This document shows positions 1,526-7,609 of a DNA stretch of 15,330 bases, in pieces. The notes under the pieces were generated by a model. That model did no database searches and was not told the DNA's origin. It saw only the letters and a program-made list of their open reading frames with translations. The number at the start of each line of letters is the position of its first letter. Position 1 is the first letter of the stretch. A program made the position numbers and the translations under genes. The DNA is from a candidate division FCPU426 bacterium (GTDB lineage Bacteria > Oederibacteriota > JAAXVQ01 > JAUVAV01), in contig DAOWGI010000089.1 in assembly GCA_030637655.1 (NCBI GenBank), positions 1 through 15,330 of the forward strand, written 5' to 3'.

Positions 1526-1915
1526 GTTGTCAGACTACTCAGCTGCGTGCATATAAGGCTTCCGGCCTCAGACCTTCCCTTAGCTTGCCGCCGCTTGCTC
1601 GCTGCGGGAGCCGCTGAGTTCTCCCGGTTCTCGAACATAGCGTGTACTCCGCAGACAACGACTCGCTGTTTACTACCGTTGCCTGTGTTGCCTTCCCTTA
1701 CCGTTGTACATGGTCGGCGCCCCAGACTGGTGATTTCGGAGCTCAATGGCTGGCCTACGTTTCCCCGATCAACGCTTCACGTGCTGCCTCACGACCACCC
1801 GCGCATGACTTGGGGCCATGATGGATCAGCTGGTCCTTTCATGTAAGGGACTTGACTTCGGCTGAGCTCAGTCGAAGCCTCACCCTTTACTCTATGCCGG
1901 TTTATCCCGGCGCTT
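1526..1915 (-). mobile_element. Truncated, decayed group II intron (5' domains only; no RT ORF, no domain V/VI)
   Basis: The minus strand reads GCGCCGGGATAAACCGGCA...AAGGGTGA[insert]AAGTCCCTTAC...GGCCCCAAGTCATGCGCGGG...GAAGCGTTGATCGGGGAA...AGGCCAGCCATTGAGC...GAACCGGGAGA...GGGAAGG...ATGCACG...GAGTAGTCTGAC. This is the motif order I recall for bacterial IIB-type (probably class E) intron 5' domains. The 5' GTGCG has degenerated to AAGCG. Confidence 0.82.
1854..1879. repeat. 26-nt palindromic element inserted in the intron remnant
   Basis: GACTTCGGCTGAGCTCAGTCGAAGCC is a near-perfect palindrome. Deleting it restores AAGGGTGAAAGTCCCTT on the minus strand. Confidence 0.85.
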
Positions 1916-1978: not shown

Positions 1979-3697
1979 TCAAACTTTCATTTTCCGAATG
2001 GCTTCCTGAAGGTAGCTGGAGGCCGAGGATATTTCCTGAATGCTGCTCGTGATCTCGGCCATGGAATTGTTGAGTTCTTCCATGCTGGAGGCGATTTCCT
2101 CCAGCGCGGAGGCATTGTCCTCGGCAAAAGCGATCACTTCCCGCATGTTACTCTGGACCGTATCGGTACGTTCCAATTGCGAACTGGACAGAGTGGACAT
2201 GTTAGCAACGCGCTGTTCCAGATTACTGACGGATTTCACGATGGTGGACAGTGATTTTTCGGATTCAGTCATTGATTCACGGCCCGAGGTAACGTGCTTG
2301 GCTCCATCGGTCATGGACTCGACCGCAGCCCGGTTCTCGATCTGAATGCGCTGCACCAGGGCGCCGATTTGTTTTGTAGCGTCCCCGGATTCCTCGGCTA
2401 GTTTCTTGATCTCGTCCGCCACCACGGCAAAGCCCCGGCCCGCGTCGCCGGCCCGGGCCGCCTCGATCGCCGCGTTGAGCGCCAACAGGTTTGTTTGCTC
2501 GGCGATCTGCGTGATCACTTCCAGCACTTGGTCGATTTCCTGAATCGTGCCGCTGAGTTCGCTCACCTGGTGGACATTTTGGTCGAAAATAGTAAACAGC
2601 AAGTTGATTTTTTTAATGGCAGATTGGATGATTCTACCACCATCCTCGGCGGTAGAGTGTGTAATACGGGCCAGGTTACGGGCTTCATCCAAAGAGATGA
2701 TAAATTCCTTCAGGGAATTGGCTTGGTCCTTGATGGTTTTGGCAGAGTTGACCGTGTGTTCCCGCTGCTGCTCGGCATTGGTGGCCACGGAGGAAATATT
2801 GCTAGTGACTTCCTGCGTAGCGGCGCTGATTTCTTCGGATAGGGATAACAAGTGTTCGGAGATACGCCGCAGAGTCTCGGTCAGGGATTTGGTACGGAAG
2901 ATTGCGGTTTGAATCGATCCGAGAAAATGATTCATATTATTAAAAGCACGGGCTAACAGACCTATCTCATCACTTGTGTTAACGTTTATAATGTATTTTA
3001 AATCTCCGGCGCCAATTTTCTGGGCGCCAACCTGTAAAAGTTTAATCGGCCCGGTTAAAGTACGCGCAAAGAAAAATGCCACGATAACGCCAAGCACCAG
3101 AATACCTATGGAAATCACAAAAACCTGTATTGTAGCCTTACGAATAATTTCATTCGTTCTTTTCTGTGAGGCGCCCAGCACCATTGCTCCGATTAGCCGA
3201 TCATCTATAAGCAGTTTCCTTCTCGCTTCCGTGACTTCTTTATCTTTATATTTCGTCTTTTTGATATAAAATAAATTCTCGGCCTTTTTGGTATAATGAT
3301 CCGACCGACTGTAATCATATTGGATTATTTCATTAAATATTTCAGGTTCTTTCCGGCCCACCCGGGAATAATCACTGTCGCCGATTATTTGACCGCGGTC
3401 ATCATAAAATGTAATGTATACAATATCCTCCTGCTTAAGCACACCAGTGCAAACTTCTTTTAACAAAGGATAATCCCATGATATCAACATCTCTTTACAG
3501 TTTGTCGCAAGATTTGAGGATAACGTTTCCAGCCGGATTATACTTTCGGTGTGGATGATTCTTTGTATGTTGATTGAAAACGATATAGATAATGCGAGAA
3601 TACCTGCGACCAGCAGAAAAATGGTTACCATCAAGTATTTCTGAAGAATACCAAAACCAACAACTTTATTTCCGGCAAATTTTGTTTTTTCTTCCAT
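1979..3697 (-). CDS. Methyl-accepting chemotaxis protein (TM, periplasmic sensor, TM, HAMP, signalling domain)
   Basis: [38 protein letters not shown] hairpin-tip motif; HAMP ([14 protein letters not shown]); two hydrophobic helices. Start moved from 3715 to the ATG at 3697 (MEEKTK), 9 nt after a GGAG at 3707-3710. Confidence 0.96.
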
Positions 3698-3727
3698 CCA
3701 TATATTCTCCATCAAGAATGCACTTGG

Positions 3728-3830
3728 CCCTGCAACGCCGAAAACCCCGGGCGTGCCCCGTCCGGAGAGGAAATCGAACGGGACTTCCGTTGGGCTCCCG
3801 GGAATAAGAGCGTCAAAAGGCGTTGCAGGA
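3728..3830 (-). other. Extended GC-rich stem-loop in the chemoreceptor leader (candidate cis-regulatory RNA)
   Basis: Perfect 11-bp inverted repeat at 3729-3739/3819-3829, an internal CCCGGG pair, and a 10-bp inner stem at 3755-3764/3775-3784 that pairs fully only on the minus strand (G-U wobbles). Confidence 0.55.
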
Positions 3831-3852
3831 TGTCGCCCCGGTCGGAAGAAAT

Positions 3853-3858
3853 ATTATA
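3853..3858 (-). promoter_or_regulatory. Putative -10 element for the chemoreceptor transcript
   Basis: Perfect TATAAT on the minus strand between the terminator and the structured leader; no convincing -35. Confidence 0.4.
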
Positions 3859-3948
3859 GGGACAAAACTTTTGCGGATGTCTGCCAAATGGGCATACAAT
3901 GTGCCGAAGCATTTGCAAGTAAACCGCATTTAAGCTTTTTCAACATAC

Positions 3949-3978
3949 AAAAAACTCCCCGCCCGTCAGGGCGGGGAA
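3949..3978 (-). terminator. Rho-independent terminator after the PhnD-like gene
   Basis: 9-bp stem TCCCCGCCC/GGGCGGGGA with a 4-nt loop, followed by T6 on the minus strand, 8 nt after the stop. Confidence 0.85.
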
Positions 3979-3986
3979 ATTTATTT

Positions 3987-4883
3987 TTATTTATCGGACA
4001 TCTTCTGCCAGTAATCCAGATCATAAAATTTCGCGCCGTGAATCGAATCGCACGCTTCCTTTACCGTGTTATACTCCTTCAATGTTATGGGCACCCATTT
4101 TTCGTATTTCTTATTTACCGCTTGGATCTCGGCAAGACCTTCCTCATGCATGTTGAGGAGAGTTTGCTTGACTTTTTTCAATGCCTTTTTAGAAACTTTT
4201 TTGGTGTTTACGCAAAAAGGAAACTCCGGCACCGCGGGATGCCGCCAGAGACTTCGCAACTGCTTTTTTTCTTCGTTGTATTGATTGAACGTGGCTTCGT
4301 TGATGAAACAAGCGGCATACTGTCCAATGATAACCGCCTGGGCGGCTTTATCATGCCTGCCTAAATATTCAAATTGAAAATATTTAAATTTGTCAATTCC
4401 CTGGTCCTTCAGCCAGCCAGTCGGCATTAGATTGCCGGAAGTGGAAGAGGCGCTGGTCCCGCCCACTTTTTTTCCTTTTAAATCCTTAAGTGATTGGTAG
4501 GGAGAATCAATTTTAACCGCAAGATGGCCATAGTAAGTCGGTGAACCCGATTTTTGCGCGCAGACAAAGGGAAGGACAGGGCCGCTGCCTGCAGCCTGTA
4601 CACAGGTAACCGGAGCAAGAAATGCAAAATCAATTTCACCGGCCACAATATCTTTCACCAGCGTCGTGTATCCGCCGGTAACCCCTGTGGTAGGATACAG
4701 TTTCAACCGTATATCCAGGCCGGTTTCCGCGCAAAGATGTTTTTCTATTCCCTTGAATCTCTCTATCATCTCCGTGGGTTTTCTGAGGGGTAAAATACCA
4801 AGATAATACGTTTTTGCCCAGACCTCTCCTGCTTGCAATAAGCTAAAGCACATCAACATAATTCCTAATGTTCTTTTAAGCAT
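3987..4883 (-). CDS. PhnD/PtxB-family phosphate/phosphite/phosphonate-type periplasmic solute-binding protein
   Basis: Cleavable signal peptide; G.IDFAFLAP; YYGHLAV; SLKDLKGKK; SSTSG; GRHD; C-terminal P..PF. RBS GGAGGAG. The ligand cannot be determined from sequence. Confidence 0.9.
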   Translation of the reverse strand: MLKRTLGIMLMCFSLLQAGEVWAKTYYLGILPLRKPTEMIERFKGIEKHLCAETGLDIRLKLYPTTGVTGGYTTLVKDIVAGEIDFAFLAPVTCVQAAGSGPVLPFVCAQKSGSPTYYGHLAVKIDSPYQSLKDLKGKKVGGTSASSTSGNLMPTGWLKDQGIDKFKYFQFEYLGRHDKAAQAVIIGQYAACFINEATFNQYNEEKKQLRSLWRHPAVPEFPFCVNTKKVSKKALKKVKQTLLNMHEEGLAEIQAVNKKYEKWVPITLKEYNTVKEACDSIHGAKFYDLDYWQKMSDK

Positions 4884-4941
4884 TTATTCTCCTCCCTTTT
4901 TTGTTTTAGCGAGGCAAACATAGTGCCGTTCGCAATACCTT

Positions 4942-4972
4942 ATTATATGCACCACTGATATTCCTGCGTCAA
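4942..4972 (-). promoter_or_regulatory. Putative sigma70-type promoter of the PhnD-like gene
   Basis: TTGACG (4972-4967), 19-nt spacer, TATAAT (4947-4942). The spacer is long. Confidence 0.45.
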
Positions 4973-5235
4973 GTGAATAAATGTTGCTCTTTTTCGGGAC
5001 CGCGAGTTTCGAAAGTATAAAGTATATTATTTTTTATCGGAAAAATAAAGGTTGAAATTGTAAATAATTTGCGTAAAGTATATAAATGCAAGACAATATA
5101 TATCTTAGATCCGAATGAAGGGTTAAGATAAATAACCGAATGGGAGGTGGCCCCCTTCTTTTAAAAAAACTGCTTTTAATCAAAACGAAATCAAATAAAT
5201 TATCAATAAAAAAACCCAACCCAGGAGGTCGTTTA

Positions 5236-6309
5236 ATGTCAGACATATTAAAACGTTACATAGTTTGCTTGAGCGCTTTAGGTATGTTATCCATTGGATC
5301 AACAGCTATGGCGGAAGAAGTTTTACCCCAGACCGTCAAGCCGGCACCGACAGTAACCGCACCAGCGGCTGCGCCAAAAGTTCCTGCTCAAGTTGGTATT
5401 ACGGATCTGAAGATTCACGGTTATTTGCAGACTTACTACTCTTGGTTTGAAAAAAGTAATCCTGACAGCTATTTTGAGATCAAACGCGCCCGCCTGACAT
5501 TGGATGGAAAAATTGCCCAGGCGGTTAAAAGCAAGATCCAAATTGATGCAGCATCTTCCACCAATCTTCTTCTGGATGCATCCATTAGCTACCAGCCTTT
5601 TTCATTCATGAATTTGAAAATGGGTCAATTTAAGATGCCCTTTAGTGAGGAACAAATCGGTTCTTCCGCCAAATTAGATGTCTTCCATCGTTCCGAAGTA
5701 ACCAGCAAACTTTCCTATAATTACGACCTGGGTCTCATGGCCGAGGGTAAGCTTTTGAAAAAGAAAATTTACTATGGTGCGGGTGTGTTTAATGGCGCTG
5801 GCCGAAATCAAGCGGATAACAATGATAATAAAGATGTTGTTGGCCGTGTGGTCTTTTCACCCCTGGCGGGGAGTGGATCACTCCTGGATGGTTTTTCCTT
5901 GGGTGGGGCATTTCAAATCGGCCGCCAACCGCAAGTGGGTACTGATGAGGGTGAACGGAACCGATACGGTGGATTGCTGAAATACACTTATGCAGGGTTT
6001 AAATTACAAGGTGAATATATTTATCAAGAAAAAGAACAAGTTGACGCGAGTAAAAAGTTTGCCTCGGGCTGGTATGCACTTGCTACTTATTGTGTTATTC
6101 CGGAAATGATTGCTGCGGTAAAATTTGAAATGTACGATCCCAACCAAGCAATTGATCTGGATGGCAGCCAAATCGGCAGTATTGGTTTGAATTATTTTCT
6201 TGCTAAAATTAAGATTCAAGCAACCTATCGGTTGAAAAAGCGTGAGACCGATATCAATCCCATTAAAGAATTTTATTTAATGACTCAAATAAAATATGGT
6301 AAAAAATAA
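5236..6309 (+). CDS. Outer-membrane porin, phosphate-selective porin O/P (OprO/OprP-like) family
   Basis: Signal peptide and Pro/Ala-rich linker, then FEIKRARL, LLDA, GQFKMPFS.E, D.G, GVFNG, NDNKD.VGRV, and alternating beta-strands at the C-terminus. Start moved from 5140 to the ATG at 5236, behind AGGAGG at 5223-5228. Confidence 0.88.
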   Translation: MSDILKRYIVCLSALGMLSIGSTAMAEEVLPQTVKPAPTVTAPAAAPKVPAQVGITDLKIHGYLQTYYSWFEKSNPDSYFEIKRARLTLDGKIAQAVKSKIQIDAASSTNLLLDASISYQPFSFMNLKMGQFKMPFSEEQIGSSAKLDVFHRSEVTSKLSYNYDLGLMAEGKLLKKKIYYGAGVFNGAGRNQADNNDNKDVVGRVVFSPLAGSGSLLDGFSLGGAFQIGRQPQVGTDEGERNRYGGLLKYTYAGFKLQGEYIYQEKEQVDASKKFASGWYALATYCVIPEMIAAVKFEMYDPNQAIDLDGSQIGSIGLNYFLAKIKIQATYRLKKRETDINPIKEFYLMTQIKYGKK

Positions 6310-6972: not shown

Positions 6973-7272
6973 TTATTTTGTCCTCGCTATTCCTGCCAAC
7001 AAAATACATAACCCGTGTGAAATCAGACCCGGTAAAAACAAGATAACATACCCACTACCTACAAGTAAAAACCAAAGAATCGCCGAAATCACATGTCCTT
7101 TATACAAGTGCCCGGCACCGGGAATAAACAAGCTCAATAGCGCGGCCAACCATCCACTTTTTTCAGGTTTAATGAAAACCACCTTGTCTCTAAGCACATG
7201 ACCGCAGTACGGACACGCCTGGGCTGAGTCGGAAACCCGGTTGTTGCATTCCGGACACAAGGTGAGTGGCAT
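6973..7272 (-). CDS. Small membrane protein with N-terminal zinc ribbon (TM2-like C-terminus)
   Basis: CPEC...VSD.A..CPYCG zinc ribbon, then KS...AALLSLFIPGAGHLY.G and hydrophobic helices. Confidence 0.85.
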   Translation of the reverse strand: MPLTLCPECNNRVSDSAQACPYCGHVLRDKVVFIKPEKSGWLAALLSLFIPGAGHLYKGHVISAILWFLLVGSGYVILFLPGLISHGLCILLAGIARTK

Positions 7273-7276
7273 AATG

Positions 7277-7609
7277 TTAGACTTCCGCCTTTTCCCGAAT
7301 CATTATCAACATCATTTTAAACGGTTTCCGCGCTTTTAAGGCGTGCGGATGATTCGCCGGCATAATCATCACTCTACCGGCCGTGACATTATGGGGTTTC
7401 CCCTCAATGGTAATTTCCGCTTCACCGTCCAAGACATGAACAAAAGCATCATAAGGAGAGGTGTGCTCACTTAATCCCTGTCCTTGAGCAAAAGCAAAAA
7501 TAGTAATATTACCTATTTTTTTATCCAATAGGATTTTACTCACCACTGCGTCCGCCTGATAATCCACCAGGATGTTTAGATCCATAGCTTGCCCAAATAC
7601 TATTCCCAT
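7277..7609 (-). CDS. Cupin domain protein
   Basis: FAFAQGQGLSEHTSPYDAFVHVLDGEAEITI and MPANHPHAL cupin motifs. Confidence 0.92.
   Translation of the reverse strand: MGIVFGQAMDLNILVDYQADAVVSKILLDKKIGNITIFAFAQGQGLSEHTSPYDAFVHVLDGEAEITIEGKPHNVTAGRVMIMPANHPHALKARKPFKMMLIMIREKAEV

Follow-up and report, generated by a model that had tools for sequence, protein, structure and literature searches.

Sensing by way of a binding protein has been documented for only a handful of systems. In the chemoreceptor pairs PstS-CtpL of Pseudomonas aeruginosa and MBP-Tar of E. coli a ligand-loaded substrate-binding protein activates the receptor, as described in a review (PMC8050422), and the only case of sensing through a binding protein of the PF12974 family given there is the arsenite-sensing AioX-AioS system, in which AioX signals through AioS, a protein whose sensor domain has been modelled as sCache-like (PMC8050422). 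The table of that review lists no pair of a PF12974 protein and a chemoreceptor, and a literature search at the level of title listings returned no description of a PhnD-type binding protein paired with a chemoreceptor. Here we describe a candidate for such a pair in a 15,330-bp stretch of DNA (the window), which is a complete contig (C80) of a 3.28-Mb, 120-contig genome of a candidate division FCPU426 bacterium with a completeness of 91.55%. A gene for a PhnD/PtxB-like periplasmic substrate-binding protein (hereafter SBP) lies next to a gene for a transmembrane methyl-accepting chemotaxis protein (MCP) and is divergent from a gene for a Porin O/P-family protein; open reading frame (ORF) and Pfam scans found these three genes where a sequence-only reading of the DNA had placed them, with start codons refined. 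Our interpretation, to which we assign a probability of about 0.65, is that the SBP-MCP pair senses, and does not import, a phosphite-, phosphonate- or phosphate-like anion, by means of a transporter-less SBP that docks on the MCP.

The SBP matches the Phosphonate-bd family PF12974 with an E value of 7.5e-53 (179.8 bits, cut-off 27), exceeds the TIGR01098 cut-off (121.3 against 112.05) and carries a predicted cleavable signal peptide that ends in VWA, with K as the first mature residue. Searching 5.8 billion clusters for relatives gave 64 close proteins (E <= 1e-51, 41-100% identity, the window copy included), below which identity drops across a gap to 32% or less, where putative selenate binders and ordinary PhnD-like proteins are found. 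The subfamily is tight (40-87% identity to the window SBP) and was delimited at 40% identity or more, so that loci L031-L064 and L097-L116, with 33% or less, were excluded as lying outside it. Named members derive from metagenome-assembled genomes labelled Omnitrophota and Patescibacteria/Parcubacteria, and the closest named relatives, both of the SBP and of the sensor domain of the MCP, are annotated as Candidatus Omnitrophica/Omnitrophota. The Patescibacteria proteins have an N-terminal transmembrane (TM) anchor and a linker in place of the signal peptide. In the window's own phylum the subfamily is sporadic, being present at E <= 1e-30 in one of 60 related genomes, namely G002, which belongs to the same family and a different genus.

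The evidence that carries our interpretation comes from the company that the SBP gene keeps. We fetched 27 genome loci (at least 40% identity) and scanned 147 neighbouring ORFs against Pfam. Downstream DNA was available in 24 of these loci and in 22 of them the next gene on the same strand encodes a protein with a TM-sensor-TM-HAMP layout. This protein is a complete HAMP-HisKA-HATPase kinase in six loci (L007-L010, L016, L019), a HAMP-only protein followed by a PAS kinase in four (L014, L015, L017, L018), a HAMP-only sensor in nine (L012, L013, L021, L022, L024, L025, L027, L028, L030) and, in the Omnitrophota loci L005, L006 and L023, a HAMP-HisKA protein followed by a separate HATPase-REC-REC-GAF-HisKA-HATPase gene. 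A different partner is found in L020 and L026, where the SBP gene is divergent from one encoding a ToxR-like protein of 694-719 aa with an OmpR-type DNA-binding domain, one hydrophobic segment and C-terminal TPR repeats. A metagenome scan added 18 subfamily loci, whose neighbours were identified with local profiles, BLAST and a final Pfam scan. Nine of them have a HAMP sensor downstream (six being copies of genome loci or of each other), five have a ToxR-like regulator divergent from the SBP gene, one has a fragment of such a regulator and two have nothing recognised, while in L088 a sCache_3_2-HAMP-MCPsignal protein is encoded directly upstream of an SBP only 51% identical to that of the window.

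When copies were merged at 97% nucleotide identity or more, 40 non-redundant loci were obtained, G002 included. A non-MCP HAMP sensor stands downstream of the SBP gene in 25 of these and an MCP beside it in two (downstream in G002, upstream in L088); the rest comprise seven ToxR-like regulators, one regulator fragment, three contig ends and two loci with no recognised partner. The pairing of SBP and sensor is conserved across two phyla, Omnitrophota and Patescibacteria, and its outputs are swapped: the same sensor module has a HisKA output in L005, L006 and L023 and an MCPsignal output in the window and in G002. This distribution gives good support to the proposal, originally made from the window DNA, that the PhnD-like protein serves the MCP as a sensory partner and has no transporter.

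Several features of these related loci may be recorded in their own right. In the Omnitrophota kinases (L005:8842-12856, L006:1151-5124, L023:8676-12492) a HAMP-HisKA protein of 386-440 aa is followed by an 884-890-aa gene that starts with HATPase_c, and a true split kinase is likelier than a sequencing error because the gaps between the two genes differ among the three loci (1 to about 130 nt). The HAMP-only sensors at L015:8842-9849, L017:8832-9872 and L018:8895-9938 end in a Cys-rich tail (CW.F WKCD...CPAY...ECWLVA.DYCP...C.EC.WF) that has no Pfam match and may be a metal or redox module. A second SBP clade, 41-46% identical to the window SBP, is divergently paired with the ToxR-like protein (Trans_reg_C, TM, periplasmic TPR) at L020:5948-8032(-), L026:5921-8080(-), L092, L094, L095 and (partial) L090, L091, often with DUF6940 nearby, and this pairing may represent a one-component version of the same sensing idea.

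The MCP itself (HAMP 1.9e-14, MCPsignal 4.6e-44 in Pfam) has two TM segments with a periplasmic domain of about 145 aa between them. Its residues are numbered throughout on the 578-aa ORF; the start is most likely ATG 3697, which we prefer because the database copy P0119 (572 aa) and the G002 orthologue begin there. Residues 1-215 share 63%, 52% and 45% identity with the kinases adjacent to the SBP orthologues of L023, L005 and L006, respectively, and the similarity to the L023 kinase spans aa 9 to about 317; the SBP of L023, at 73% identity to that of the window, is the closest kinase-linked orthologue. Contig C96 of the same genome encodes a second MCP, which shares 73% identity with residues 235-578 and has an unrelated N-terminus. 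Judged by these identities the window MCP is a chimera: with a sensor half that is kinase-like and a signalling half that is C96-like, it combines a sensor and HAMP of the SBP-linked histidine-kinase type with the signalling part of a resident MCP. The fusion is older than the split from G002, because the orthologue in that genome is similar from end to end (82% identity over the whole length).

The periplasmic domain is related to the Patescibacteria sensors at a weak and yet significant level (27-30% identity over about 100 aa, E about 1e-6), and four residues, Y82 within the SWDYP-like motif, I98, G176 and S183, are shared by all 23 aligned sensors. An AlphaFold2 model of aa 48-197 (mean pLDDT 70.2, falling below 50 in an Omnitrophota-specific insertion) shows a long helix, a short helix, six strands and a final helix, and its best Foldseek matches are periplasmic domains of PDC/Cache type, namely the LapD-like CdgS9 (E 3.9e-4, TM 0.53/0.60), CusS, WalK and CitA; sCache_3_2 is matched by 5 of 22 members of the sensor family. 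In the model the SWDYP motif sits where helix 1 turns into helix 2, a position that would form the membrane-distal tip and thus a plausible docking site. When MCP aa 50-195 and the mature SBP (aa 24-298) were paired in a complex prediction, run on our own alignments and without controls, the best score was 0.22 against a mark of 0.32, a value that speaks neither way on binding. A word-based search found five proteins of near-equal length with the sensor domain, two of them MCPs and three HAMP-HisKA proteins, and an exhaustive profile search raised the number to 260 representatives at E <= 1e-3, of which 70 at E <= 1e-10. Among the 82 that were scanned with Pfam (from 150 listed representatives of the 260 matches in all), 54 have HisKA and/or HATPase_c, nine MCPsignal, six HAMP or HAMP and PAS only and 13 nothing (1e-9).

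The size of this wider family, far larger than the set of sensors known to be adjacent to an SBP gene of this kind, suits an alternative in which the sCache-like domain of the MCP binds a small molecule directly and the SBP is a co-regulated accessory with some other role, such as buffering or scavenging the anion or antagonising the sensor, as does the fact that single Cache/PDC domains such as CitA, one of the fold matches, bind their ligands directly. We nevertheless regard this as unlikely, since the pairing survives a swap of output, a swap of gene order (L088) and transfer between phyla, and the SBP clade without a HAMP sensor has another regulator with a periplasmic domain next to it. 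Across the four Omnitrophota pairs, moreover, identities to the window fall together (87, 73, 64 and 66% for the SBP; 77, 63, 52 and 45% for the sensor), a trend that shared ancestry alone could also produce.

The sequence-only reading had remarked on the lack of a PhnC ATPase or PhnE permease gene, and the Pfam and NCBIfam scans found neither an ABC ATPase nor a permease among 15 window ORFs. No PhnE-type permease stands beside any of the 40 non-redundant loci as judged by Pfam scan (by BLAST only for the metagenome ORFs), the only ABC genes near related loci being FtsEX in L013 and an ABC ATPase about 2.8 kb away in L096. The PhnE model TIGR01097 has no match in the window's own genome at its 91.55% completeness and in G002 gives only generic 33-bit matches against a cut-off of 216.7, so the suggested search for an orphan PhnE came back empty in both. 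PhnE was likewise absent from three of three SBP-carrying Patescibacteria genomes, and the genome of L023 has nothing over the cut-off. A true PhnE does occur in the Omnitrophota genome of L005 (G064), where the PhnE operon has distant PhnD-like proteins of its own (scoring 69-87 bits with the subfamily profile). One of these appears to be fused to PhnE in a 513-aa ORF at L117:5900-7441 (G064:C157), and the operon further contains another PhnD-like gene and one for an ABC ATPase. Five BPD_transp_1 permeases are encoded in the window's own genome, four of which form two sugar-type pairs. The fifth is a 187-aa TauC/SsuC-like ORF on contig C43, between an AAA protein and a glycosyltransferase and with no adjacent ABC ATPase or SBP, and it is truncated, matching positions 73-229 of 275 in TauC. 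The two other PF12974 domains of the genome, L002 (G000:C49) and L003 (G000:C35), are each followed by a histidine-kinase gene; they form the C-terminal ends of proteins of 672 aa and 710 aa, in which about 440 N-terminal residues have no Pfam match.

These searches bear on the possibility that the SBP is an ordinary uptake protein, its transporter being encoded in the unassembled 8% or so of the genome or represented by the orphan TauC/SsuC-like permease, and that the sensors only regulate its expression without contacting it. The SBP does pass the cut-off of TIGR01098, a model named for ABC transporter substrate-binding proteins, the genome is incomplete, the short permease on C43 lacks a partner, L096 has its ABC ATPase and a terminator separates SBP from MCP. 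The C43 permease is truncated and without an adjacent ATPase, however, and uptake fits poorly with the lack of PhnE beside all 40 loci and in the window's own genome, G002 and the three Patescibacteria genomes. Regulation of SBP expression by the sensor would also leave it unexplained why two separate lineages have an MCP in this place, a protein that does not control transcription, and we consider an uptake role quite unlikely.

What the SBP might capture can be judged from solved relatives. A profile search of PDB sequences ranked Te_PtxB (5JVB, 1.1e-21) and Ps_PtxB (5O2J, 3e-21) first, followed by ArrX (6x6b, 3.7e-20), with other PhnD/PtxB/HtxB proteins, AioX (6esv, 1.3e-11) and E. coli PhnD (4.6e-11) further down. 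According to PMC5700983, phosphite in Te_PtxB is contacted by Y55, Y100, S130, T131, S132 and H160, a capping Y208 is held by D22 and the Y208F exchange destroys binding. We mapped these positions through a HMMER alignment of the SBP to Te_PtxB (5JVB) and counted residues over 30 subfamily sequences, the query and 29 of the 64 close matches picked across the identity range with fragments avoided. Y55 corresponds to Y72 (Tyr in 26 of 30, Phe in four), Y100 to Y117 (30/30), S130/T131/S132 to S147/T148/S149 (30/30, 29/30 and 30/30) and H160 to H177 (30/30). All six oxyanion-contact positions of PtxB are kept, and the site for three oxygens is therefore intact, in keeping with the oxyanion ligand first proposed from the window sequence. 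Around it the subfamily has features of its own: the capping Y208 is replaced by Phe221 and its Asp partner D22 by Leu33 (both 30/30), an invariant Glu220 occupies the position of D205, a ligand contact in Pm_PhnD, and a 4+2-residue insertion (YPTTGxxGG) precedes the first pocket Tyr. By this mapping the fourth ligand position faces a purely hydrophobic cap. An XPO3 compound with a small apolar or H substituent, i.e. phosphite or a small phosphonate, is thus a plausible ligand, phosphate is a possible one and other tetrahedral oxyanions may be bound.

A receptor of this kind needs a signalling apparatus, and the genome encodes four MCPs, two CheA, four stand-alone CheW, CheR, CheB, CheD, CheC/CheX and several CheY-like receivers. 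One of the CheA genes adjoins those for CheC and a PilM-like protein, with a secretin (AMIN domain) and PilT (402 bits against a cut-off of 319.1) within about 12 kb on the same contig. Neither flagellin nor FlhA was found in this genome, whose 91.55% completeness makes the result no proof of absence. Flagellar chemotaxis was rejected on this ground, and because PilT and a pilus secretin lie near CheA, pilus-based movement or another Che-controlled function is the likelier output. The taxis originally suggested is a weak part of the proposal and doubtful in a flagellar sense, although a full Che set, PilT and the pilus secretin are present.

Putting these strands together, we infer that the SBP would act as a soluble periplasmic receptor without a transporter, capturing a small tetrahedral oxyanion of XPO3 type for which phosphite, a small phosphonate and phosphate are the best guesses. 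Once closed around the ligand it would dock on the adjacent MCP at the sCache-like periplasmic domain, from which the signal would travel through the HAMP domain to the MCP signalling module and feed into the CheA/CheW/CheR/CheB machinery, which would most likely steer type IV pilus motility or some other Che-controlled output in an organism that appears to lack a flagellum. The MCP that makes this possible arose by fusion of a histidine-kinase-type sensor module with the signalling module of a resident MCP.

A number of observations weigh against this picture. The Phe cap with its Leu partner is one, and as Te_PtxB loses binding upon the Y208F exchange the ligand of the SBP may differ from phosphite; the SBP also falls under the cut-off of the PhnD equivalog model TIGR03431 (112.9 against 261.1 bits). 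SBP and MCP genes are separated by 271 nt and a strong terminator, most Patescibacteria pairs being 3-70 nt apart, and 9 of the 40 loci lack a HAMP sensor as neighbour. Adjacency could also mean that the sensor regulates the SBP gene. Domains of the sCache type usually bind small ligands directly, and the MCP might not need the SBP. On the transporter side, the orphan TauC/SsuC-like ORF on C43 does exist, and a PhnCE operon could have escaped a 91.55%-complete assembly of 120 contigs. Finally, ORFs of the related loci were called with our own longest-ORF script and no gene finder.

Of the three genes the porin is tied least firmly to the others. Its start is most likely ATG 5236, preferred because the orthologue starts there and AGGAGG lies upstream. 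The match to Porin_O_P (PF07396) scores 84.8 bits against 20.9 and covers only profile positions 20-173 of 370, and NCBIfam gives only a weak match to ExtI-porin (25.4 against a 150-bit cut-off). In G002 the triad recurs in the same order, MCP-SBP-porin, with identities of 82%, 87% and 80%, and its flanks differ from those of the window, with an fn3 protein and HflX on one side and GFO_IDH, LpxB, KdtA and LpxK on the other. The arrangement is therefore beyond chance, the same genes standing in the same order in another genus between different neighbours. Blocks of the intergenic region between the divergent SBP and porin genes are conserved between window and G002, and the genome has only two Porin_O_P genes. 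These points would suit a full three-part module, as first proposed, in which the porin is a dedicated anion channel and forms one functional unit with SBP and MCP. The porin stands beside the pair in only two related genomes of one family, though, and its orthologues in G003 (89%; DUF72, porin, tgt-yajC), G008 (59%) and G007 (46%) lie in unrelated contexts without the SBP/MCP pair, no SBP being found in these three genomes at E<=1e-30. Fetched flanks of L005, L006 and L023 contain no porin (0/3, tblastn), the Patescibacteria loci, whose SBPs are TM-anchored, show none among Pfam-scanned neighbours, and the Pfam match is partial. Such a three-part unit is doubtful in our view, and as a general member of the conserved unit the porin was rejected, its orthologues occurring without the pair in three genomes and kinase-type loci lacking it. 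The sequences point to a weak link with the SBP-MCP pair; the porin may ease anion entry without being a conserved part of the unit. The three-gene neighbourhood thus held up in G002 and did not extend to the other SBP loci.

The C96 MCP (L078, G000:C96:20000-32000), which donated its signalling module to the window MCP or shares it, is encoded directly upstream of tgt-yajC. In G003 (L072, G003:C247) the porin orthologue holds the same position upstream of tgt-yajC. The triad of MCP, SBP and porin may have been assembled at the tgt locus.

The coordinates of the features are collected in Table 1.

Table 1 Features of the MCP-SBP-porin region in the 15,330-bp window; MCP residues follow the 578-aa ORF
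Feature	Position	Strand	Details
Chimeric methyl-accepting chemotaxis protein (MCP)	1979..3697	-	572 aa from ATG 3697; ORF reaches TTG 3715 (578 aa); HAMP, MCPsignal
MCP signalling domain, aa 352-527	2135..2662	-	PF00015
HAMP domain, MCP aa 215-261, junction zone of the chimera halves	2933..3073	-	Pfam
Periplasmic sCache/PDC-like sensor domain, MCP aa 50-195	3131..3568	-	family motif SWDYP at aa 79-83
Intrinsic-terminator-like hairpin between SBP stop and MCP	3955..3978	-	10-bp stem, 8 G-C pairs, then TTTTTTGT (T run)
PhnD/PtxB-like periplasmic substrate-binding protein (SBP), predicted sensory co-receptor	3987..4883	-	298 aa, mature from K24; PF12974, TIGR01098
Promoter-like site upstream of SBP (TTGACG, 17 nt, CATATA, overlapping TATAAT)	4942..4972	-	consensus match only
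Porin O/P-family outer-membrane channel, divergent from SBP	5236..6309	+	357 aa; ORF 5140-6309; PF07396 9e-24

The promoter-like site falls within the best-conserved block of the SBP-porin intergenic region, and a scan of G002 found TTGACG-17-CATTAT as its counterpart. Between SBP and MCP the spacer (3716-3986 in the window) is 153 nt in G002, and the two align poorly. The terminator that had been noted there is a real hairpin; it is not conserved, being absent from the G002 spacer. An Rfam scan of the whole window found no riboswitch or leader in the spacer, and a conserved RNA or DNA element within it was rejected, given the poor alignment and the missing terminator.

The only strong match of that Rfam scan is to the 5' part of a group II intron (RF02005, D1-D4; 120 bits, E 3.9e-34) at 1637-1854(-), directly downstream of the MCP gene. 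D5-D6 were not matched, and the two minus-strand ORFs that come next (1354-1746 and 1-1089) gave no match to a reverse-transcriptase domain; the contig stops near the intron, which may have interrupted the assembly. A cupin gene, 54% identical between the window (6973-7609(-)) and L023:5516-6471, lies one or two genes upstream of the SBP gene in both as a trace of synteny; next to it the window encodes a small zinc-ribbon/TM2 membrane protein, and L023 a DUF4190 protein. The remaining window genes are housekeeping genes (trpC, trpF, tatD-radical SAM, metG, ricT, holB and tmk).

A PhnD/PtxB-like subfamily that is apparently never linked to a transporter, has signalling proteins as its neighbours and shows interchangeable outputs constitutes a clean natural experiment on the rewiring of a kinase sensor to a chemoreceptor. 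The SBP-MCP pair is a concrete, expressible pair of proteins through which the perception of phosphorus-type anions by uncultivated Omnitrophota and Patescibacteria might become accessible, and the Phe cap with its Leu partner may mark a new ligand specificity in a family used for phosphite biotechnology. One may go further and suppose that the subfamily is a dedicated, transporter-independent extracellular sensor of phosphite or small phosphonates with three outputs (histidine kinases, chemoreceptors and ToxR-like one-component regulators) that has moved between Omnitrophota and the ultra-small Patescibacteria, and that the window holds the first PhnD-type SBP-chemoreceptor pair, made by a recent fusion of a kinase sensor with a resident MCP and pointing to pilus-driven movement towards a phosphorus source in a phylum without cultivated members; this extended version is speculative and we offer it tentatively.

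Compared with known systems, the resemblance to the phosphate and pyrophosphate porins OprO/OprP is limited to the partial Porin_O_P match over the gathering score. The binding proteins of the PtxB/PhnD1/PhnD importers have the same fold and the same six ligand-contact positions (two Tyr, S-T-S and His) as the window SBP. They differ in having PhnC/PhnE partners, and the window SBP differs from them further in its Phe cap and Leu, its insertion and its sub-equivalog score; in HtxB, by contrast, the pocket His that the subfamily keeps is replaced. As in the Tar-MBP and CtpL-PstS systems, the window has a TM MCP with a periplasmic domain, a HAMP domain and a signalling domain, and the genome encodes Che proteins. 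PstS and MBP also serve ABC transporters, whereas no transporter was found for the window SBP; they belong to the PBP_like_2 or SBP_bac_1 families and not to PF12974, and the receptor domains of CtpL and Tar are of the HBM or 4HB type where that of the window MCP is sCache-like.

The nearest parallels are AioX-AioS-AioR and ArrX/ArxX, which, in the descriptions given in PMC8050422 and PMC5908839, share with the window a transporter-less PF12974 binding protein and an sCache-like membrane sensor. Membership of the AioX group was rejected for the SBP on sequence rank, pocket motif and gene context: the protein is closer to Te_PtxB (1.1e-21) and Ps_PtxB than to ArrX or AioX, no AioX model is among its NCBIfam matches, it has the S-T-S of the PtxB/PhnD type where ArrX has S-F-S, and the arsenic gene context of the AioX type is missing, Pfam and NCBIfam scans finding no aio, arr, arx or other arsenic gene in the window. 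The output of AioX-AioS is a kinase and its carriers are Proteobacteria; that of the window pair is an MCP, in a subfamily whose carriers are labelled Omnitrophota and Patescibacteria. What would be new with respect to AioX-AioS is accordingly a binding protein without arsenic context or transporter that combines a PtxB/PhnD-type pocket with three alternative signalling partners.

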